Shown here piece by piece: positions 19,461 to 62,297 of a DNA stretch of 64,000 bases; within the stretch, counting starts at the first letter, position 1, and every line of letters starts with the position of its first letter. The notes under the pieces are model-generated. The model worked only from the letters and a program-made list of their open reading frames with translations, was not told where the DNA came from and did not search any database. Where the stretch lies: the NCBI GenBank assembly GCA_964473825.1, contig CAYYQL010000006.1, positions 47,367 through 111,366 on the forward strand, in the 5' to 3' direction. Both the position numbers and the translations under genes were made by a program. This DNA comes from an uncultured archaeon. Lineage in GTDB: Archaea; Asgardarchaeota; Thorarchaeia; Thorarchaeales; Thorarchaeaceae.

Positions 19461-19568
19461 GGGCCGATAGTCTAGCCCGGCTATGATACCGCATTGACAT
19501 AAGTCATTGATTTCCAATTTCTTTCAAAGGTGCGGTGGTCGCTGGTTCAAATCCGGCTCGGCCCACCA
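19461..19568 (+). tRNA. tRNA-Val(GAC) with 30-nt canonical intron (19500-19529)
   Basis: Acceptor GGGCCGA/TCGGCCC; CCGCA-TTGACA^G-TGCGG; BHB helix TTGA/TCAA; CCA. Confidence 0.93.
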
Positions 19569-24913: not shown

Positions 24914-25468
24914 AATCGTTCACTTGTCTTCAAACAGAAGGCTTTGGCAAACTTTTTAACACTGACCTTCGGGGATTTCGGGAAAAGGGGGAGAAAGGTT
25001 GGACTTGCGGGATAGTGTGTCCCTCTCCAAGAATCTCTCTTTTCACTCGCTCAACATCTCGGGGGGATTGCTTGGAAATCCAAGAATTTAGCATGTCATT
25101 GGGTGATCGGCTGCATTTCCAGAAGTAAACCCGATCTTCCAGAGAGATCCATATGATTGCTTCGCTCCTCGCTCGGTTGTTCAGATCTGCTGATGGCTTG
25201 TACAAGATTCAATCAGATTGTCGGGCAGATGAATTCTGGGTTACGCCTTCGAATTGGTCCGGATGTATCTCGTAGAAGTAGAATCTGTCGGAAGTATGTG
25301 TGAGATTCGCCTTTCTTATAGGATTGCCCAGGGATGCCAAGTAAGAGCCTGAAACATCATTCATCAGGAATCGTAATCCAATCTTTCCCGCCGCTAATGA
25401 ACTCCACACTGTCTCACCCCGATATAGGATGGCAATAATGAATTGACATTCATAGAACTGCAGAAAGA

Positions 25469-25634
25469 TGGTGCGCTCGCCGGGACTCGAATTCCCGACC
25501 ACATTCGAGACTGAATGCAGTTCCCGGCTCCCGATTGCATTCGGAGTGAATGCAATTGCCGGATCCGTGGCAGGGATCCATCATAGCCCCTTAGTCAATA
25601 CCCCAAAAATTGGAGTATTATAGACAACGAGCGC
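25469..25634 (-). tRNA. tRNA-Gly(GCC) with three non-canonical introns (14/15: 25591-25620; 48/49: 25528-25557; 53/54: 25492-25522)
   Basis: Spliced product GCGCTCGTTGTCTAGGGGCTATGATGGATCCCTGCCACGGATCCGGCCCGGGTTCGAGTCCCGGCGAGCGCACCA folds as a cloverleaf; each insert is a hairpin with BHB-like junctions. Confidence 0.88.
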
Positions 25635-25824
25635 TCGAGAAACAGTCGAGGCAGTATCGGTTTTAAAGGTTACCAATAGGTTCCAATTCTCCACTGGCTA
25701 TCAGTCTTTAAACATGTCCCCACTTCAGGAAATCAGTCCAAATTTGAGTCCCGGCGGATGCATCATTCTTAATTTGATTTAATATCTTTTTAATCAGGGG
25801 ATCAGTGTGACGACCCAGAGAGTA

Positions 25825-27129
25825 TCATGGCCGGGACATCTTGTTCAAGGCTCTGGAGATACCCATTAGCGTCTTCTTGATGTCATTATCAGTGTGAGCA
25901 AAGGAGAGCGCCCCCAAGCCATGGTAACCAAAGATGCCCTCTTGCATGAGTAGACCCTGAAAGATATCTTGTTGCTTATGATCGAAGAGCTCGCCAATCT
26001 GTCCGGGAGTTGTGATGTCGTCTGATGGCAGATTGGTGAGACAAGTGATGAAGTTGATCGAGCCATATCCCGTACCAATGATACTGACCTTTTCCTCCTC
26101 AAGCATATCATTTAGTCGTTCTCGGAACACGTCACCCATTTTGTTCAAGCCAGAGTATTCATCCTTCTTGGCTCTAAGCTGCTCCAAGACCGCCAAGCCC
26201 GCGACCATTGTGAGAGGATGGCTTGAGAAAGTGCCTCCACCCACCCAGCGGCCGCCCTTTGTCCCAGGTACCGCCAGAGCCATAATGTCCTCACGACCGC
26301 CATATGCACCAAGGGGCATACCTCCCGCGGCTGCCTTGCCGAGGGTAAGAAGGTCGGGCATTACGCCGAAGATTCCATCCCCGGTTGTTCCGTACCTTAG
26401 GCGGAAGCCCGTCACAATCTCGTCAAAGATGAGCAGAATATCCCGTGACTCGGTCTCCTCACGGAGATATGAAAGAAAATCATCCGCAGGCGGTAGTCCG
26501 CCACCGGCTCCTACTATCGGCTCAACGATGATTGCCGCCAGATCCTTGCCGTGTTGCTTTAGCATCTGGTCCAGACTCTCACGGCTGTTGAAATCGAAAG
26601 AAACACCATTGTAGAATGGTTCATCGGAATAGGGATACTTGAGGTGAAATGATAGTGTATCGTTACCACCATGCCAGCCACTCAGTGCCTTTCCCACAAG
26701 TGATCGGCCAGTGAACAGGCGGGCCAAGCGTACGGCGTACATGGTAGACTCGCTTCCGGTGGCTGTGAAGCGCATCTTCTCAAGAATGGGCACTGTCTTC
26801 TGGATTGCCTCACCATACTTCACTTGGGGTTCTGTTGGCGCACCGAAGTGGTACCCGTCGTCCAGTCGCTTCCAAATCGCCTCTGCAACATGATGGTTGC
26901 CATGGCCCAGTATCATGGAATAGTGGGTCATCCACCAGTCGATGTACTCGTTGCCGTCAATGTCCCATATGTGTCCACCCTTGCCACGCTCGATGTAGGG
27001 CGGATATGAACCGGTTGCCGGCATACCAAACGTACGGATGTTATGACTCACACCGCTCGGGAATACCCTCGTTGCCCGTTCATAGAGATCTCTTGACGTT
27101 CCGGTCCGTGAATGATAGTCTTCAAGCAC
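25825..27129 (-). CDS. Class III PLP aminotransferase (GSA-aminomutase-like)
   Basis: DIDGNEYID, TGSEST, FDEIVTGFR, TLGKAAAGGMP. Confidence 0.88.
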   Translation of the reverse strand: MLEDYHSRTGTSRDLYERATRVFPSGVSHNIRTFGMPATGSYPPYIERGKGGHIWDIDGNEYIDWWMTHYSMILGHGNHHVAEAIWKRLDDGYHFGAPTEPQVKYGEAIQKTVPILEKMRFTATGSESTMYAVRLARLFTGRSLVGKALSGWHGGNDTLSFHLKYPYSDEPFYNGVSFDFNSRESLDQMLKQHGKDLAAIIVEPIVGAGGGLPPADDFLSYLREETESRDILLIFDEIVTGFRLRYGTTGDGIFGVMPDLLTLGKAAAGGMPLGAYGGREDIMALAVPGTKGGRWVGGGTFSSHPLTMVAGLAVLEQLRAKKDEYSGLNKMGDVFRERLNDMLEEEKVSIIGTGYGSINFITCLTNLPSDDITTPGQIGELFDHKQQDIFQGLLMQEGIFGYHGLGALSFAHTDNDIKKTLMGISRALNKMSRP

Positions 27130-27135
27130 CTGCTG

Positions 27136-28179
27136 TCACCTCAGCTCTGAGTCTTTGTAGAACCTTGACGTGTTCCGTGGTACTGGTATGTCCTTCATGG
27201 TCTTCAGACCCGGTGAAGAACTGACAACCATGGGAATAAGATTGAGAATCATTCCGACTGTACCGAAGTCGCCCTGAACACCACCTTCAATGCGCTGATA
27301 GATTCGGGGATGCCCGTCAATCAGCACCTCATCGTATTCGGGCGTTGCCTCTGCAAATGCCAGAAAGTCGAGCTGTACTATCGTGTGGCCATCGCGGCGC
27401 CCTAGGCCGGTGCTCTTCAGACCCAGCACATCTCCCTTCTCTATCTTCGTGAAAGGATTAGTGATGGTCGTTTCCGCGAGAACAGCCTCAGGTGGCAGTT
27501 CCTCGACGGTGTCCAACCCAAGATTGAGGGCGGCATCAATCATGCGGATTGACTCCACTAAGCCCACATGACCAGTGATGATGGCTTCGTCAATTCTTTT
27601 TCTGAACTCCTCCACCGTCATCCCAGTACCTATCTTCTTCTGGAATGAGGGCCGTCTCCGGCTGGAGTTCATATGTCGAGTCACATGGATTTTGTCAACT
27701 CTCTGGCAAGGTGCTGTCAATACAATCGGCAGTAAATCCATCAGATAGCCAGGATTGATTCCTGTGCCCAAGACTGTCTTCCCTGCCTGTCTTGCAGCCT
27801 CATCCATCCCGGAGGACAGTTCTGGATATCGAGTGTAGGGATAGGATAGCTCCTCACAGATCGAGAGTACTTCCATGTCATGGGCAAGACATACTTCTAT
27901 GAGAGGGGCGACCGACTCAAGTGATGATGATGTGGCAATGACAGCTACATCAGCAAGCTTCTCTTCAGATTCCTCCAGAGCTCTCTGGAGATTCTCCTTG
28001 ATTCTAAGTTCAGTATCGGTCCTCTCGGGGAGTAGGTCGCTCAGTTTCCTTCCCGCAATGTCAGGAGCTGCATCCACCAGTGCTGTAAGCTTGAGATTCT
28101 CTCGCTGCAAAATGGAGACTGCAACATGTCGCCCCAGGGATCCGAATCCAATCTGTAAGACTTCAAAAGGATCTGGCAT
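27136..28179 (-). CDS. 2,4-diaminopentanoate dehydrogenase-like (Ord/DapB-like) oxidoreductase
   Basis: GFGSLG, CEELSYP, GTGINPG.LMD, GHVGL.ES. Confidence 0.82.
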   Translation of the reverse strand: MPDPFEVLQIGFGSLGRHVAVSILQRENLKLTALVDAAPDIAGRKLSDLLPERTDTELRIKENLQRALEESEEKLADVAVIATSSSLESVAPLIEVCLAHDMEVLSICEELSYPYTRYPELSSGMDEAARQAGKTVLGTGINPGYLMDLLPIVLTAPCQRVDKIHVTRHMNSSRRRPSFQKKIGTGMTVEEFRKRIDEAIITGHVGLVESIRMIDAALNLGLDTVEELPPEAVLAETTITNPFTKIEKGDVLGLKSTGLGRRDGHTIVQLDFLAFAEATPEYDEVLIDGHPRIYQRIEGGVQGDFGTVGMILNLIPMVVSSSPGLKTMKDIPVPRNTSRFYKDSELR

Positions 28180-28542
28180 GGCCCTCACACATTCATCCCT
28201 GCATATATGGCATTCTGTGGACGTTTGCCTACTCCAAGAACGCCCTTATTTTTTCCATGTACATCCCGGCAATCGATCACGACGACGTGAGCTACGCAGG
28301 GCCAGCAGCTTTCTTGATGGGAGAAACTATCACAGTACTCCCCCCGTGGCAGCTGCAGCAGTTTGGGAACGGTACTCTGACGCTGTCTCGTGAGAATCTT
28401 TGACTTAACTTCTACTACTCTCCACTGATTATTAGAGCAAGTCGAAACTATGAGAGAGATGAGTCACACTAATCCGTAACGAAGCTGTTTTCAGGAGGAC
28501 GATACTCTACGGGCGCAATGATGGACGAGATGACGTGAGAGT

Positions 28543-30006: not shown

Positions 30007-30414
30007 ATGAAGAGAGTGTTGTTCCTCTGCACCGGTAATTCGGCACGCAGTCAGATGGCTGAGGCGCTTCTGCGCGAGCTGGGAAAGGAAGAGTACGAGG
30101 CATTCAGTGCCGGAACAGACATTCAGACAGAGGTCAATCCGTTCGCCATCCAGGTACTCAAAGAGATAGGCCTTAACACCGAGGGACTCCATCCAAAGAA
30201 ACTGGATCGCTTCAAGGGTGAAACATTCGACTTCGTCATTACTGTGTGCGATAATGCAAGACAGCAATGCCCCTTCTTTCCAGGAGCAAGAGAGATGCTC
30301 CACTGGTCACTTGAGGACCCCGCAGCATTCGAGGGGAGCCATGAAGAGATTCTCTTGATCTTTAGGGAGACCAGAGATGAGATTGAGAAGAGAATCAAGG
30401 GCACATTGCTCTAG
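30007..30414 (+). CDS. arsC: LMW-PTP-type arsenate reductase
   Basis: FLCTGNSARSQMAE, VCD..CP, HW.LEDP. Confidence 0.92.
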   Translation: MKRVLFLCTGNSARSQMAEALLRELGKEEYEAFSAGTDIQTEVNPFAIQVLKEIGLNTEGLHPKKLDRFKGETFDFVITVCDNARQQCPFFPGAREMLHWSLEDPAAFEGSHEEILLIFRETRDEIEKRIKGTLL

Positions 30415-32417
30415 TCTTCGACCCAATCAAACTTCCGCTGCAGGAGTTTGGTGTATATGTTTCTCCAGTCATAGTCGACCTTCTGACACCAGTTGTAGAC
30501 AATCTTCGGATGGATGTATGATTTGAGAGAAGTGCCAAGATTCCACGTTCGAGAATCTCGAGCCAGTGCCCAGTCAACCTCTATCTTCTTCTTGGCCAGT
30601 TCAGCCTTCTTGACACGTTCCTTCGCCCGTTCAACCATTTCCTTCCGTCGCTCGATTCGTTCGTTGCCATCTTCACGTGTGTCGATCAGAGACTGTTTCT
30701 TCTTCTCCAGTATCTCCTGACTTCTGCGATAGGTCTCTGTGTAGTCCTGCACACGCTTCTTTGCCTTTTCCCAACGCTCTCGCGTCCGGTCAATCTTGGC
30801 CTGTGCCTCTTCTAGGCGTTCTTGTTTGGTTCTCTTGCTCTTTCTTCGGCTCTCACGGATTGCGCGCTTCTCGGCACGGGCATTATCCCATGTCTCTTTT
30901 GCCTTGTCACGCTTCTCGCGATATTCCGCCATCTTCTCTTTGCGTTTCTCAACGACATCCTTTTGCTTCTCGATCAGCTCTCTCTTCTTCTTGAGTCGGT
31001 CCCGTTCTGTCTTACGCCGTTTCTTGAGGCGCTTCTTTTTGTCCGCAAGTGCTCTCTCTGCCTTGGCAATACGTTTGTCGGCCTTCTTCAGTCGTTCTTC
31101 AAAGCGTTTGTCGCGCCTTGGCCAACTCTTCGGCGCCTGTTTTGTATGATTCATAATGCGGGCTACTTCCAGATTGGCTCGTTTGGCTGCCGCCTTCTTG
31201 ATGAAATCCGGGTCCTTCTTTGATACTTTGCTCTCCTTGAGCTCCTCTCTCATAGTGACAGACGCATGGTACGTCCGGAACATCTTCGCGGTGAGATCTG
31301 GATACACCTCACTGAGGAACTGGTTCACATCGTGACTCCGGACCTTGGGAAAGATCTGGGCCATCTTCTTTGGGTCGGCCTTCGTCTTCTGGCGCTTTCG
31401 GGATTTGAATGAGGCCACCCAATCCTTGGCGTTATCGTACAGCTCACGAAAGACATTGTAGACATCATCAGGCGTTTTCAGTTCCTTATGCCAAGGAACA
31501 CTGTCTTTCCCCAAGAAGTCGAATATTATCAACCCGTTCTTGAAGGTGAGATGTTCCACACGTAAGGTTGTCGCGCCCACTGTGTCTGCCTCGTCCTTGT
31601 CCTTCTCATCTCCGACTCGCAGATTCAGACGATCAATCAGATAGCATGCAGCTGCGATCTCACGGACCTTTGCATCATCTGAGTGAAGGCCCCTCATGAT
31701 GTGCTCACGAACGTCTTCAATATGCTTCTCTAGCCTCAGAGCACTATCGAACTTCTCGGCCTCGCGTTCCTGTTTGATGGGCGTAGCATCATGGAGCCAG
31801 ATATACTTGTTCTTGCCGGTCAGCTCACTCTTCCATTTTGCGATCCAGAGACATTCAGGCTTCCAGACAATCTTCTTCCAGTTCCCCTCCGGACGAGGAG
31901 CATCGGGAGAGAGATTGAGTGTGATGTCCTCACATGTCGCAGCCTGCTTCCATCGGCCCCGAAGAGGATGCTCGCCTCTTCCCATGAATATCCCTGATGG
32001 CTCCGTCATGTAACTGGCTAGTTCCATCGTTTCTCCGTCAACCTCAGCATATCCGTACTCCTTCTTGAGGCGTTCCCGTTCAGCCTTTCGCTCCTCTCGC
32101 GCCCTCTTCTTCTCCTCTTTGGTCATGGCCTCCTTTGCTGCTCGCTCTTCTTCCACAAACTGTATCACTTGGGAGAAATCAACCTCGTCAAGAGAGAGCG
32201 GAGAGTTGAATCCGAGGACTTCACTTAAGTCAGTCATGAAGTTCTCAATGAACACGGGGTCTTCAACATAGGGCGTGCCCAGCTTCTTTACCCATGCCAC
32301 AGCCAACTCTTGCTGCCCCCTGGTCAGAACTATCTTTTCTCCTCGCACTTCAATTTCAAGACCTTCTGGCTCTGGTGCCTCTAAGATTAGTACTCCGTTG
32401 TGTTTCAGGCTGTCCAT
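30411..32417 (-). CDS. top1: Eukaryote-type DNA topoisomerase IB
   Basis: LKHNGV, GRGEHPLRG, LRVGDEKD, FLGKDS, KMFRTYHAS, NHTK, GTSLKSYIHP (catalytic Tyr); ATG at 32417 after GAGG. Confidence 0.95.
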   Translation of the reverse strand: MDSLKHNGVLILEAPEPEGLEIEVRGEKIVLTRGQQELAVAWVKKLGTPYVEDPVFIENFMTDLSEVLGFNSPLSLDEVDFSQVIQFVEEERAAKEAMTKEEKKRAREERKAERERLKKEYGYAEVDGETMELASYMTEPSGIFMGRGEHPLRGRWKQAATCEDITLNLSPDAPRPEGNWKKIVWKPECLWIAKWKSELTGKNKYIWLHDATPIKQEREAEKFDSALRLEKHIEDVREHIMRGLHSDDAKVREIAAACYLIDRLNLRVGDEKDKDEADTVGATTLRVEHLTFKNGLIIFDFLGKDSVPWHKELKTPDDVYNVFRELYDNAKDWVASFKSRKRQKTKADPKKMAQIFPKVRSHDVNQFLSEVYPDLTAKMFRTYHASVTMREELKESKVSKKDPDFIKKAAAKRANLEVARIMNHTKQAPKSWPRRDKRFEERLKKADKRIAKAERALADKKKRLKKRRKTERDRLKKKRELIEKQKDVVEKRKEKMAEYREKRDKAKETWDNARAEKRAIRESRRKSKRTKQERLEEAQAKIDRTRERWEKAKKRVQDYTETYRRSQEILEKKKQSLIDTREDGNERIERRKEMVERAKERVKKAELAKKKIEVDWALARDSRTWNLGTSLKSYIHPKIVYNWCQKVDYDWRNIYTKLLQRKFDWVED

Positions 32418-32580
32418 TAGTACATGAAACCTCATTCGATTCATTTCCAAGCTCAAGAATAGACGGGTGTAGTTCGCTTGTTCTTCTCGGCGAGAAGAGT
32501 GTGCCAAAAAAAAGATTGTGTTTAATTCATTGCAGAACTCGGATTCTTTGGCTAGAAGAAAAGCACAAAAAGGAGAGGAA

Positions 32581-32604
32581 GCCGAGTCTCGTGCAAGACT
32601 CGGC
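32581..32604 (-). terminator. GC-rich hairpin followed by a pyrimidine/T-rich tract on the minus strand
   Basis: Perfect 9-bp stem GCCGAGTCT/AGACTCGGC. Confidence 0.4.
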
Positions 32605-32949
32605 GGGGTTTTATTGGGCCTTTTGAGAAAAGGCGCTATTAGAACCAAGGCTCTATTAGATTCACCAAGGCTCTATCAGGACGGGGATTTCATCATCTGG
32701 ACCTGTCAAGTCATTTCACCTGAATATCATTCAGGGATGAGGGGTAGTGTACTGCACGTTCTGCTATCGAACGATTCGGAGAGAAAGGATAGGTTTATTC
32801 CAGAGAGAGCGGGGAGAGGGAGGCAAAGAGAGGGAGGAGATTATATCCGAACGCCCGGTACAGATTTGCCAAAAACAGCTAAGCAGACATAAGGAAAACC
32901 ATACGAGAGGAGAACTTCCGTGACATTGGAAGGAAATCAACCGAACTTC

Positions 32950-35900: not shown

Positions 35901-37533
35901 AAACCTCAAAGGCTATTCGTCGTCCAGACAGGTCTTCTGTCAGACATGACTCGAGCGCACTCAAGAGAAGCCCCCGTATCATTCGTCTGCTCTCTCTGCT
36001 CTCGTCGCTGGGGTCCATGACGAGTGTGGCACGAATCACCCTCGGAGGGCTCTCAAGATGAGCAATCGACCCAAAGACCTCAGACAGGGCCTCCGCATAA
36101 GCATCCAGCTGGGTAACGGTGTTCGGTTCAGGGGTGCCATCAACGACCTGTACCCACTCCTTAGGGCTGAGGGGCCGGAGAGAGAGCCTGAACCGTGGGA
36201 CCACCCGCTGGACCATCCCGTGCCGCTTCCGAGATGACGAAGGCCTTCGTTCAGGCTCCATATACCACTTGAACCCACAGCGGGTCTTGACCTCCACCAC
36301 CATCAGCGGACGCCAGAGGGTACGGAGACCTGTTGGTGCGGTCTCCCTTCTGAACACGACCAGGTCTGCCCTCCCCTTGCCCAGCGAGGTCCCCAGAGGT
36401 AGCTCTGCGACAATCCTGAGACCTCCTCCGGCCCCATCACGGTCATCGTCGCGGATGGCTCTCCGTACATCCAGAAACCGGTCGAATCTGTCCGTGATGC
36501 GCCTGTGGGCCTGGGCCCCCACCCTCTTCGTCCGTCGAACGGCACTCTGCCACAGGTGTTTCACATCATCACTGGTCAGGCGTGGTGCCTTCTTCTCGTG
36601 CTCGTCCGTCAGGACCTCGGACCCGCCTGACAGGATTCGGGCAAACTCCCCGGTCAGTACCGAATCCACCCCGGCCGCCTCCGCCTGCGCCAGCTGCTCC
36701 TCGAAGAAGTCCATGCTGAAACGGGGACGGGAATACGCCGCATGGGAGGACACGGTCTCAGGCTCACCCACCCGAACACCGTGGTGTGCCGCGATGTCAT
36801 CACGGATCTCCCGCAGCAGCCTGACCGTCCCATCCCTAAAGCCCGACGACCCATGCTCATGCTCGGTGTACAGGTGGTCGAGGTAGGTCCGTGCCCGCAG
36901 GATGAAGAGGTTGCTGTACCTCCGTGTGTCCCGCACCGACACATCGTGGATGTAGGCATCCGTGTTCAGGACCTGGATGTGCTGGCGCAGGGCGTCCATG
37001 AAGTCCAGCTCGGTGAGGAAGCGGTGGACAGGGGGATAGGCGGGGCAGCGTGCGTCGCCGGGATACCCCTGACCGATGTGCTCCCCGTTCTCGTTGAAGA
37101 GGGGCTGCGGCTGCCCCATGGGGTAGTAGATCGCCCCAGACTCCCGCAGAGCCGCGCCCCCAACGTTGAAGCGCTGGTTCAGGGGGCCCACATCCTCGTA
37201 CCACCGTCGCGCCCGCACGGTCTCGGTGCAGCCATAGAGGGCTGCGTTCTCCTCTAGCATGTCCAGACCATTCTTCCTGATGTTGTGCTCGGCCTTCATC
37301 ACGTGGCTGAAGTCCGGGGCACCCACCGCCCTCGAGATCTGGTAGGCCTCCGTGTACCGGTGCAGGATGTCACGGGAACTCTCGTACAGGTGGCGCGTGG
37401 TCGCGTTCCGAATCGTGCGCTGCAGGTACACAGCCGTGGACAGACCTGTCCTCATCGCCCGTGCCAGCACCCTGTTCGGATGCCTCGGGTACGGCCTCGC
37501 CCGCGGGCCACGGCTCCCTCTCATTCGCGCCAC
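32950..37533 (-). CDS. 1527-aa multidomain protein: PD-(D/E)XK (RecB-like) nuclease plus degenerate RecA/P-loop-like region
   Basis: E-LPL...GRADLVVF...VVEVKT...QLDAY; ASPTSAGLS and LLVVSGW at Walker A/B-like positions. Confidence 0.65.
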   Translation of the reverse strand: MARMRGSRGPRARPYPRHPNRVLARAMRTGLSTAVYLQRTIRNATTRHLYESSRDILHRYTEAYQISRAVGAPDFSHVMKAEHNIRKNGLDMLEENAALYGCTETVRARRWYEDVGPLNQRFNVGGAALRESGAIYYPMGQPQPLFNENGEHIGQGYPGDARCPAYPPVHRFLTELDFMDALRQHIQVLNTDAYIHDVSVRDTRRYSNLFILRARTYLDHLYTEHEHGSSGFRDGTVRLLREIRDDIAAHHGVRVGEPETVSSHAAYSRPRFSMDFFEEQLAQAEAAGVDSVLTGEFARILSGGSEVLTDEHEKKAPRLTSDDVKHLWQSAVRRTKRVGAQAHRRITDRFDRFLDVRRAIRDDDRDGAGGGLRIVAELPLGTSLGKGRADLVVFRRETAPTGLRTLWRPLMVVEVKTRCGFKWYMEPERRPSSSRKRHGMVQRVVPRFRLSLRPLSPKEWVQVVDGTPEPNTVTQLDAYAEALSEVFGSIAHLESPPRVIRATLVMDPSDESRESRRMIRGLLLSALESCLTEDLSGRRIAFEVSRDGLRPRMALVVHNQEHTPDYRELPVPPEWKPPYDPLIGAGISARRFILYIAAASPTSAGLSAAWIAAHHHGLQMIHDFREGAPDLRVVWLDLADEFSTTSLAEVRLRARLRSGENGLSDAVQETLHSIDFKPLFAEIQAYLYNGGPMIDLSRVLEDKVKQPRLLVVSGWDAIESSTPSLYRDRMNRLLAELVDRLSDDEQTTILWFSRPVKYERRTPIYSTNCLIPVRDTSPLVGELDEIIWNLPCAPERVIDPDSWHRQSAPRSPMFDDIRVVVAQSSFGFESSLLHIPVLRHWTAKFRTEEYDRAKTEIPEPQEQAVPKAWVRDRIRSLAMSLLPWLADLWPNTEVSPGVSFSDALRDFFNEFHESMEGLTITRRSLSREPTDVPTLLHRLMYRPPRTKRQKAFADIFLGQINAHRLYRGPKQNKSKARDSYPKTVESPKPRIASFGQIVYSEDPDQPISIVALEDPRNPARVLVGFFNKRLATRPDGMQWAESDISEHTDSVRELIDTGSRISLALQQNSENWLFWTRETEESDWILRSSFDFIPGRPTGSIAMLRATRQDPISEPISRRSTDILVPASLSHRLEKAIERVLSRIQGQTHVSVELSWTDEGCRVDIKNEDDESLQMIEHHFTPNLIDTLTLTRKGLPVRLSSGQMVFWDRFSGIEYGDLSLMANVSETFIPETADIRLPARVADLHALPCGKELSFRLSHNENECPLASGEGKEHGRCWQSTLEGENEEMLDVFCGLFTDREIILRLGSESIVFDSKIHPVNVILPSDLQRESLVFRESPLIRKILRKSGLKVSSLKTGTYLRAEQQRWEISLTIRDDWLKWTALSSLTGEYWKNRSFTYELEVVRELSDVLDDLWRNITSEIPEESIYDPEAQRTRIRSALEKRGLRDGEMPARLEADLQRRTLTLEVRRAGEADEILDSLSWELPRGVSGDEVVDSILQLLEEGNWTRFHIVNMEEFFEVLDGFFH

Positions 37534-39683: not shown

Positions 39684-41795
39684 ATGGCGGCTGCTACGAA
39701 CCCTAGAATCGCGGTAAAGATACCGATTGCATGGGAGAGCATGTCGTCTTCTTCTCAGCAACACTTGGAACAGATAGTGGGTAGGGACTCCCGAGCAATC
39801 AAGAGGCTCCTGGGCATCATTGAACACAATGAGGATGATCTACTCTGTGGTAAGAGAAGGAACAAGGTGAGCCTGGGGCAACTCAACAGAATCACCATGA
39901 CTGCGACGAGGGGAAAGGCCAACCGGACCAAGGTCCCGCATGACCTGAAGGTTGACTTCCCGCGGGCCTGTGCCAGCGACCTCGCTGAGTGCGTCAAGAC
40001 AGCTGTCAGTCTGTACAACAGCTACCTTGCCCTCAGGCAGAAGAGGGGGTGGAGAGCGTCCCGACCCTGTAAGTCGAACTCCTCAGGACGTATCCCTCGA
40101 TGGATGTTTCATCCCAAGTCCTTCCGATTGGTTCAGCATGAGAACACGACTGCGCGGTGGTGGATGTCCCTGAGGGACTCGATGGACTCGAACCTTGAGG
40201 ACAGGTTGCGCCATGACAGGCTCATGATTCCCCTGAAGATGTCCCCCTTCCATGAGAACCAGCTCCAGCGCGGCGAGGTCAAGGCTGCACAGGTCTTCAC
40301 TGACCGGCTGGGAAAGTGGTGGGTCACGATATCCGTTCGTCTGGCTGAGACTCCAGAGGTCAGCGACGAGAACCCACCTGCTGTGCTAGGAATAGACCTG
40401 GGGATTGAGAAGGCTGTCTGTACCACTCTTGTCACCCCTGAGAAGGTGCGCGAAACGCGCTACTTCACACAGCAGAAGAAGGTCCGTCTTCTGAAGCAGT
40501 ATGATGACAGAGTCGCAAGTCTGCAGAGCGAGATGGACCTGAAAAAGGCTCGCGGCCAACGCTATGATGGTGTTGCAGAGAGACTGCGCTCTCTCAGAAC
40601 CAAGAGAGAGTCCGTGTCCAAGGAACACGATCGCGTCCTGCTCCGGGAACTGATCGACTACATCCTGGAGCTGAGTGAGAGGTATACACTCTTTGTCGCG
40701 ATTGGCAGGCTCAAGAACATCCGAAATAGTGCCAAACGCGGTGACTGGAAGGGCCGAAGGTTCAGGGGCATGGTCCATTCATGGGCCTTCGCTCGGATAA
40801 CCGAGGGACTTCGACGACAGCTCGGTCAGCTGGGTTGGCCTGTTCTGGGTAAGAAGTCGCGGGTCCACGCAGTCCCTGAGGCATGGACATCCATCATCTG
40901 TTGGAAGTGCGGGCAGAGAGGAACCAGACCCAGACAGAACCTCTTTGTCTGCTCCTGTGGAAACAAGTGCAATGCCGACAAGAACGGAGCCATCAACATC
41001 GCCGGACGCCTCATTACGCTCACAGAGTCACTCAATTCTGTGAGAGGACTAGGGAAGTGGGCTAGTGCAGCCTCTGCACGACGCACGCAACTGAAAGCCC
41101 GGAGGAAGACATCTTCCAAGGGGAGGTCCTCACTCTCAGGGCGCGATGCCTCATCTCATCGCGGAGAGTCCGCGGCTGTTCACTACGCTCAACCGAGCCT
41201 CCTCGACTTCGGTGACGAGGCTGAGGTGAGTGATGACGGTCCAGCCGTGGGAAGAAACGTGGAAAGACTCTCTACCGCTGGAACAGATGAACCAGCAGAA
41301 AAGGTAGGAGAAGGAAGCCAAGACAGGAAGAGAAGTGCCACTTCTATGATGCCTGACAAAGACTCCATCCCTCCCCGTCGCCAGACAGGGAATGGTGGCA
41401 ACACCGGGTGGAGAAAGGGTGGAACACGTAAGTCAACTAGAGAAGCCCACTCACTCATCAAGGGAGCCGCAACACCACTTCGAATGAATAGGAGAAGAGA
41501 AGCATGGATGGTGCGGCCACCGGGAATCGAACCCGGGCCCCATGCTTGGAAGGCATGGATCCTGACCACTAGACTATGGCCGCTTCACAGAGAGCTGACA
41601 GCCCATAGTCGATTTAAGGCTATTGCAGTGGCGCCGCGAGTTGACAGTCCGGGGAGTGGAAGGTGGATCCTTGCCTTGGAGGTCCGACACTCTTTCAGAC
41701 CATGCATCTGGCTGAAGGTCATACGAAGACCAGTTCATCATGTCGAGCAGAACAACAGATATCTGGAGGAGAAGCAGACAAGAGGAGCGCGCTGA
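39684..41795 (+). CDS. tnpB: TnpB/Cas12f-like RuvC protein, copy 2; homology to copy 1 ends near 41300 and the tail to 41795 follows a 1-nt insertion
   Basis: VLGIDLG, VAIGRL, VPEAWTSIICWKCG..CSCG, NADKNGAINI; collinear with copy 1. Confidence 0.82.
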   Translation: MAAATNPRIAVKIPIAWESMSSSSQQHLEQIVGRDSRAIKRLLGIIEHNEDDLLCGKRRNKVSLGQLNRITMTATRGKANRTKVPHDLKVDFPRACASDLAECVKTAVSLYNSYLALRQKRGWRASRPCKSNSSGRIPRWMFHPKSFRLVQHENTTARWWMSLRDSMDSNLEDRLRHDRLMIPLKMSPFHENQLQRGEVKAAQVFTDRLGKWWVTISVRLAETPEVSDENPPAVLGIDLGIEKAVCTTLVTPEKVRETRYFTQQKKVRLLKQYDDRVASLQSEMDLKKARGQRYDGVAERLRSLRTKRESVSKEHDRVLLRELIDYILELSERYTLFVAIGRLKNIRNSAKRGDWKGRRFRGMVHSWAFARITEGLRRQLGQLGWPVLGKKSRVHAVPEAWTSIICWKCGQRGTRPRQNLFVCSCGNKCNADKNGAINIAGRLITLTESLNSVRGLGKWASAASARRTQLKARRKTSSKGRSSLSGRDASSHRGESAAVHYAQPSLLDFGDEAEVSDDGPAVGRNVERLSTAGTDEPAEKVGEGSQDRKRSATSMMPDKDSIPPRRQTGNGGNTGWRKGGTRKSTREAHSLIKGAATPLRMNRRREAWMVRPPGIEPGPHAWKAWILTTRLWPLHRELTAHSRFKAIAVAPRVDSPGSGRWILALEVRHSFRPCIWLKVIRRPVHHVEQNNRYLEEKQTRGAR
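41190..41453 (+). ncRNA. Putative omegaRNA/reRNA scaffold of TnpB copy 2 (5' boundary approximate)
   Basis: Stems CTACC/GGTAG, AGAAGT/ACTTCT, CTCCATC/GGTGGAG and GGTG-GCAA-CACC match copy 1 positions with compensatory changes. Confidence 0.65.
41509..41583 (-). tRNA. tRNA-Gly(TCC), intronless
   Basis: GCGGCCATAGTCTAGTGGTCAGGATCCATGCCTTCCAAGCATGGGGCCCGGGTTCGATTCCCGGTGGCCGCACCA. Confidence 0.96.
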
Positions 41796-62189: not shown

Positions 62190-62297
62190 GGGCCCGTTGC
62201 CTAGTCCGGATAGGGCGCCAGCCTTCTAACGAACCTGCACTTCGCAGGCTGTGAGGGTAGTTGGAATTCGAGAGTTCAAGTCTCTCCGGGCCCGCCA
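62190..62297 (+). tRNA. tRNA-Arg(TCT) with 30-nt canonical intron (62229-62258)
   Basis: Acceptor GGGCCCG/CGGGCCC; CCAGC-CTTCTA^A-GTTGG; BHB helix CTTC/GAGG; CCA. Confidence 0.93.

Follow-up and report, generated by a model that had tools for sequence, protein, structure and literature searches.

How would a tRNA gene be spliced when two of its introns stand only five nucleotides apart, and how could such an arrangement arise? The question is posed by a 166-nt tRNA-Gly(GCC) gene on the minus strand (25634 to 25469) of the window, by which we mean the whole stretch of 64,000 nucleotides of DNA, from a Thorarchaeota (Asgard) genome, analysed here. The gene comprises four exons of 14, 33, 5, and 23 nt and three introns of 30, 30, and 31 nt. 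The account that we favor, and that we hold as a whole to be probable, is of a functional, single-copy gene spliced by EndA and RtcB with a preference for removing intron 2 before intron 3, in which introns 2 and 3 belong to one intron family, have a single origin as a pair, and reached this locus by allele replacement between genera. The elements of the gene, with the basis on which each was placed, are as follows.

25659..25674, minus strand: archaeal BRE/TATA-like promoter of the present gene (sequence, comparison; function putative)
25621..25634, minus strand: exon 1, tRNA positions 1-14 (cloverleaf parse, orthologue comparison)
25591..25620, minus strand: intron 1 at 14/15, 30 nt (fold, blind cloverleaf and bulge-helix-bulge search)
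25558..25590, minus strand: exon 2, positions 15-48, with anticodon GCC and a 4-nt variable loop (parse, orthologue comparison)
25528..25557, minus strand: intron 2 at 48/49, 30 nt (fold, covariation)
25523..25527, minus strand: exon 3, CCGGG, positions 49-53, the entire 5' strand of the T stem (sequence, orthologue comparison)
25492..25522, minus strand: intron 3 at 53/54, 31 nt (fold, covariation)
25469..25491, minus strand: exon 4, positions 54-76, with CCA encoded (parse)
25462..25468, minus strand: T-rich tract after CCA, a likely terminator (sequence)

Taking out the three introns leaves a canonical tRNA with a perfect cloverleaf, and all three junctions fit relaxed bulge-helix-bulge (BHB) forms, cut after the second bulge base. 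Intron 1 has a 10-bp inner stem and a central helix of 3 bp plus a U.U mismatch. Intron 2 has a 9-bp inner stem and a 4-bp central helix formed with positions 42-45, and no outer helix. Intron 3, also with a 9-bp inner stem, has in the precursor a central helix of 3 bp plus a G.G mismatch; with intron 2 removed, it has a 4-bp central helix and a 3-bp outer helix. The initial annotation had proposed this triple-intron gene, with junctions at 14/15, 48/49, and 53/54 and the exon CCGGG at 25523-27, and two lines of evidence agree with it. A blind genome-wide search combining cloverleaf and BHB models, which was not told of the finding, returned exactly the same three-junction parse, and the intron-less orthologues (for example, L021, L023-L025, and L028) run continuously across all three junctions, with the sequence of the spliced product. 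Among the 65 complete orthologues, 15 have no intron at 14/15, 37/38, 48/49, or 53/54, and their junctions are those of the spliced product; the 14/15 junction is set separately by alleles in which intron 1 is the only one missing (L002, L006-L010, and L013). The promoter type found ahead of the window gene also precedes the alleles in G022, G037, G040, G032, G053, and G050. Splicing that skips exon 3, through one large motif that would take in all of introns 2 and 3, was rejected at a cost of 11-24 kcal.

The window copy, missed by both ARAGORN and Rfam, is also the sole Gly(GCC) gene found, a point on which the initial annotation had allowed for another: the blind cloverleaf and BHB search, a pattern search, and BLAST recovered no second one in the 95.7% complete assembly. 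The one candidate, which lies on C39 and is labeled "Gly(gcc)" by ARAGORN, is a Pro(TGG) gene with a D-loop intron that the program parsed wrongly; its body matches the Pro(CGG) paralogue. That the gene is a pseudogene or an assembly artefact might be thought from its inverted orientation and its place beside unexplained DNA. This is extremely unlikely, because it is the only Gly(GCC) gene found and has a perfect cloverleaf, and because the same triple layout occurs in six other genomes, with compensatory changes.

Several other tRNA genes were noted along the way. The window also holds a tRNA-Val(GAC) gene with a 30-nt intron at 37/38 (19461-19568, plus strand), an intron-less tRNA-Gly(TCC) gene (41509-41583, minus strand), and a tRNA-Arg(TCT) gene with a 30-nt intron in the anticodon region (62190-62297, plus strand). 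Elsewhere in the host genome (G000), a tRNA-Gly(CCC) gene has a 21-nt intron at 53/54 (C2:219355-219452, plus strand), and in its spliced T stem U52 is mismatched with C62, at a position that is G52 in relatives. Heavily interrupted Trp, elongator Met, and Asn genes (C17:42254-42419, minus; C2:172215-172379, minus; C2 about 36850-37050, plus) gave no confident parse, and ARAGORN called a selenocysteine tRNA at C35:13546-13636 on the minus strand. At least two introns also occur in other tRNA genes of this genome, and the 53/54 site is used in Gly(CCC) and Thr(GGT) as well; the genome-wide intron census mis-parses some genes and serves here as background.

The host encodes the enzymes that such a precursor would call for. 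There are two EndA subunit genes: one specifies a catalytic protein of 188 aa with the Tyr/His/Lys residues and an L1 loop (E 3e-42 to 3p1z_B, which we take to be the Aeropyrum enzyme), and in the other the catalytic His is absent. An RtcB gene is present as well. Asgard EndA has been described as an (αβ)2 enzyme with L1, the form of the enzyme by which non-canonical introns are cut (PMC5829648). A broad-specificity endonuclease and a ligase thus appear to be encoded by the host, and the relaxed-specificity endonuclease that the initial annotation had invoked has, as far as sequence can tell, a counterpart in the two EndA genes, one with L1 loop and catalytic residues. In the mechanism we propose, the heterotetrameric (αβ)2 endonuclease would cut the precursor at three relaxed BHB motifs and RtcB would join the exons. 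Intron 1 would leave independently of the other two, whereas introns 2 and 3 would be interlocked, with 2 then 3 the preferred route.

Why should introns 2 and 3 not simply be removed in either order? Their motifs overlap by two bases, C49 and the final base of intron 2, each of which lies in the 3' bulge of intron 2 and at the same time in the intron 3 central helix. The two sites therefore cannot be presented at once, and cutting must be sequential. As the initial annotation had stated, the intron 3 helix is completed by removal of intron 2, when the G.G mismatch of the precursor gives way to a C-G pair. Such a mismatch alone imposes no order, because 14 of 18 intron-1 alleles, which depend on no other intron, tolerate a mismatch, U.U or U.C, at the equivalent place in the helix. 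The ordered splicing that had been read from it therefore stands only insofar as folding favors 2 then 3.

Constrained folding, with one parameter set and for unmodified RNA without enzyme, puts the cost of forming the motif in the precursor at 2.6 kcal/mol for intron 2 and 4.8 for intron 3. Along route 2-3 the costs are 2.6 and then 0.8 kcal/mol; along route 3-2, they are 4.8 and then 7.9. On the former route, removal of intron 2 would give intron 3 its full helix together with a 3-bp outer stem. On the latter, positions 42-46 pair with exon 3 once intron 3 is gone, burying the intron 2 site, which accounts for the cost of 7.9; the probability of this trap helix is 0.9 without intron 3 and 0.06 with it. 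The higher-cost step is lower on route 2-3 in 14 of 14 alleles that carry the pair. The size of the effect depends on how the bulges are treated: if the third base of the bulge is not constrained, the penalty on intron 2 by itself drops to 4.9 kcal (mean 4.0), and under the strict rule two of the 14 alleles favor intron 3 first. On these models, removal of intron 2 and then intron 3 is the likely preference, and the predicted misfolding trap is a better argument for it than is the mismatch.

This preference lies between two limiting possibilities. At one limit, which the initial annotation implied, intron 3 would be uncuttable until intron 2 had been spliced out. A purine.purine mismatch (G.G or A.G) is present in all 14 precursors, the full helix and 3-bp outer stem appear only after splicing, and dependence of this kind is known from nested crenarchaeal (Thermoproteales) precursors, in which the motif of one intron is completed by removal of another (Sugahara 2007 and Tocchini-Valentini 2009, as related in PMC3978253 and PMC3728597). 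Our gene resembles those precursors, as they are described in these later papers, in that completion and in the (αβ)2 endonuclease. But the dependence here seems only partial, since three of the four pairs, all G-C, form already in the precursor, and it is predicted to run both ways, with intron 3 keeping intron 2 out of a misfolded duplex. Moreover, the two routes differ in cost at the first step by only about 1.6 kcal on average, and mismatches at that helix position are tolerated elsewhere. A strictly obligatory order is thus rather unlikely.

At the other limit, a relaxed enzyme and its binding energy would override any folding preference, and the pair would be kept together merely by its 5-bp spacing, recombining as one. 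Central helices of 3 bp are indeed common, in the same 14 of 18 intron-1 alleles and in other tRNAs, and assortment of introns tracks distance: 14/15 mixes freely, 37/38, which is 11 nt off, never joins the pair, and the 5-nt neighbors never part. Intron 3 alone should also fold well and yet has not been seen on its own in this gene, so that linkage would suffice. Against this stand the shared bases of the two motifs, the intermediate containing only intron 2, which in folding is trapped in 14 of 14 alleles, and the intron 3 G that meets C48 only after splicing, which is invariant in all 14, while its opposite base in the precursor is either G or A, without compensation. Splicing in either order therefore seems doubtful to us, and a preferred, rather than obligatory, order of 2 then 3 remains the reading that we adopt. 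In a red alga, splicing order has likewise been found to be set by motif stability (PMC3978253, PMC3728597).

The folds of introns 2 and 3 are conserved among relatives. Across the 14 pair-bearing alleles, which share ancestry and so are not independent sequences for covariation statistics, 99.1% of predicted pair cells are paired, versus 25-44% in slid controls; double changes occur at 10 pairs, a level reached in none of 500 shuffles, and in intron 2 a compensatory change is seen in eight of nine stem pairs. Selection acts on these stems, and the pair is old.

The distribution of the introns is equally structured. In a census of 65 complete Gly(GCC) genes of the family, the 48/49 and 53/54 introns occur together 14 times, in seven genera, and singly not at all. 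The 37/38 intron, present in 33 genes, never overlaps with the pair. The 14/15 intron is present or absent regardless of the others, and seven genes have the triple layout of the window. A search of JGI metagenomes for single-intron alleles, using an exact-match pattern for which there was no positive control, gave three matches, all in unrelated DNA, and viral contigs held no exact match to the anticodon-arm pattern. Tight linkage explains the co-occurrence of the pair without appeal to the trap. Further intron sites in Gly(GCC) genes of the family were seen in L031, L032, L075, L132, and L015: in the T loop (two genomes), at about 42-44, in the D arm, and as a longer intron at 14/15.

Introns 2 and 3 are related to one another, as the initial annotation had claimed: 24 of 31 positions are identical, a likeness with P = 0.0004 against random hairpins when only positions not dictated by the splice motif are counted. 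The annotation had further supposed a local transposition, and here only the homology holds, not the "local." On C17, the tRNA-Trp gene has a D-loop intron that agrees with intron 3 at 22 of 31 positions (P 0.0003; 25 of 31 for intron 3 of the congener G001), and the pair is old, present in seven genera, rather than recent in this genome. Because the Trp intron is about as similar to intron 3, the comparison does not distinguish a local copy from two insertions; both readings fit, and the similar Trp intron lies on another contig. A simple tandem duplication of intron plus exon would leave a spare CCGGG and was rejected, as was concerted evolution of introns 2 and 3 within alleles, where their similarity is 0.56 versus 0.53 between alleles. 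With significantly similar introns at non-homologous positions, the genome holds a small intron family of about 30 nt, which includes introns 2 and 3 and the intron of tRNA-Trp.

Transposition of tRNA introns has been reported in Thermoproteales (Fujishima 2010, as cited in PMC4090602), and the look-alike introns at Gly 48/49, Gly 53/54, and the Trp D-loop parallel those cases as they are summarized there, except that in our gene two copies stand 5 nt apart. The pair probably arose once. Introns at 53/54 that stand without a 48/49 neighbor are frequent throughout the phylum, being found in Gly, Asp, Glu, and His genes, and two other families have a 53/54 intron together with a 37/38 intron in Gly(GCC); a single 48/49 intron was found in none of the 65 complete family Gly(GCC) genes. 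The frequency of lone 53/54 introns in Asgard archaea, together with the folding trap, suggests that the 53/54 intron came first.

The surroundings of the gene point to how the pair has traveled. Gly(GCC) lies at a conserved locus, flanked by an acyltransferase gene and by arsC-like/topoisomerase IB genes, and the cargo behind it varies. In the window, the right flank includes a type IB topoisomerase whose helical insert is long and charged (30411-32648, minus strand), and part of the cargo is a class-III aminotransferase gene beside a 2,4-diaminopentanoate-dehydrogenase-like gene (25825-28188, minus strand). The window gene is inverted relative to that of the congener G002, within collinear flanks that are 82-90% identical, and three further features lie around it.

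24943..24962, plus strand: orphan promoter of the former resident Gly(GCC) gene (comparison with congeners)
24980..25468, no strand assigned: about 490 bp of unexplained DNA that probably arrived with the inverted gene (comparison, Pfam)
25743..25765, plus strand: decayed 3' end (20/23 nt) of the former resident allele (acceptor-stem type of G001/G002)

In the congeners G001 and G002, a plus-strand Gly(GCC) gene follows the equivalent of the orphan promoter. With up to four mismatches allowed, the decayed 3' end is the genome's one match outside tRNAs. The unexplained segment has no match in 85 family genomes, and its two short ORFs have no Pfam match. Relationships at the locus are also discordant: compared with G002, the flanking proteins are 96% identical and the intron pair 79%, whereas compared with G110, of another genus, the flanking proteins are 47% identical and the intron pair 90%. 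Over 166 positions, the Gly(GCC) gene matches that of G110 at 149 and that of G002 at 141, while the multi-intron Trp gene matches that of G002 at 164. Given the inversion, the orphan promoter, the 3' remnant, and a Gly gene nearer to G110 than to G002 despite its flanks and the Trp gene, the present window gene is very likely a replacement allele. More broadly, the pair would have moved among genera of Thorarchaeia within whole tRNA alleles that replaced the resident gene at a recombination hot spot, and the window copy would be one such event.

Relatives bear similar marks. Fragments of the 5' and 3' ends of a former gene lie beside the new copy in G022, G039, G042, G058, G059, and G103, and the strings of 3' fragments in relatives start at positions 44-49. 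At L040, L043, L045, L052, L054, L059, and L025, a promoter is followed by an 11-12-nt 5' stub of the old gene, a short leader, and a complete new gene; these layouts record repeated replacement at the gene start. Runs of one to three copies of the Gly tRNA 3' end, each 28-32 nt and each separating cargo genes, occur in L128 (G039), L124 (G022), L136 (G059), and L131 (G103) and resemble a cassette array behind tRNA-Gly(GCC), although no integrase was recognized in them. In two genomes a protein, of 1034 aa in one (L124:6756-9857, minus strand) and with a shorter relative in L128, is encoded between the old and new alleles; the 1034-aa ORF, which in G022 adjoins the replaced gene, matches no Pfam family. 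At the window locus no recombinase or integrase gene stands beside Gly(GCC), the only PF00589 (tyrosine recombinase) match of the genome being on C1.

Could the pair instead be ancestral to most Thorarchaeia and have been lost many times, with no transfer between genera? Its age, with intron 2 alleles only 69% alike, and the somewhat greater average closeness of same-genus pairs (0.86 versus 0.79) would fit. But identity of the intron pair does not follow identity of the host proteins (rho 0.18, p 0.35), G000/G110 and G034/G022 already suggest near-identical pairs in distant genera, the Trp control gene was inherited vertically, and in G022, G039, G042, and G058 the intact alleles have broken ones of the other intron type at a distance of 0.2-3.5 kb. 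We therefore regard purely vertical descent as quite unlikely. A more elaborate idea, unlikely but compatible with movement on replacement alleles, is that the pair is a mutually dependent unit, in which intron 3 acts as a folding guard that intron 2 needs in order to be spliced, and so had to be gained first and could not be lost by itself, and that this unit spreads between genera on replacement alleles because its place on the 5' border (positions 44-49) of the segment duplicated by incoming DNA would block further insertion.

Replacement between genera has a partial precedent in the tRNA-Thr(GGU) gene of Caldiarchaeum subterraneum, where an allele was replaced with gain of an intron (PMC3293823). 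The two cases share alleles that differ in introns, tRNA fragments next to the functional gene, and the suggestion that attachment sites are spoiled by introns. In Caldiarchaeum, however, replacement occurred within one population and a recombinase gene is adjacent, whereas here it would have been between genera (about 47% flanking-protein identity), and the copy is inverted with its own promoter and has no recombinase beside it. In each feature of BHB introns that we tested, the window gene is typical, and its locus resembles element-mediated replacement but for the recombinase.

Within the Asgard archaea, the gene itself is an expected oddity. The initial annotation had placed multi-intron tRNAs mainly in Thermoproteales and small-genome archaea, which is out of date: in Atabeyarchaeia and Freyarchaeia more than half of tRNA genes have multiple introns (PMC11291895), and Supplementary Data 4 of that study lists three-intron genes, including Gly(CCC), with exons of a few bases. 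From its coordinates, we find exons of 7-8 nt in Lys(TTT) and of 3 nt in a His gene that is marked there as a possible pseudogene. Our gene is like these in its several short non-canonical introns, its three-intron structure, and its tiny exon, and triple-intron tRNAs and micro-exons are thus already published for Asgard. It differs in belonging to the class Thorarchaeia and in the 48/49 and 53/54 pair inherited as a unit, which is not described in the portions of PMC11291895 available to us. Two things we have not found described: the two-way folding dependence predicted for the pair, and the movement between genera on replacement alleles that comparison suggests.

Standard finders miss this gene, and its value is as a test case. 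Whether the splicing of one intron can require another could be tested simply in vitro by way of the predicted trap, and the locus is suited to testing the idea that tRNA attachment sites are shielded by introns. The 65 orthologues form a natural series, with no intron, 14/15, 37/38, the pair, or mixtures of these, in which intron content changes by wholesale replacement of alleles, and this series bears on how tRNA introns are gained, lost, and spread.
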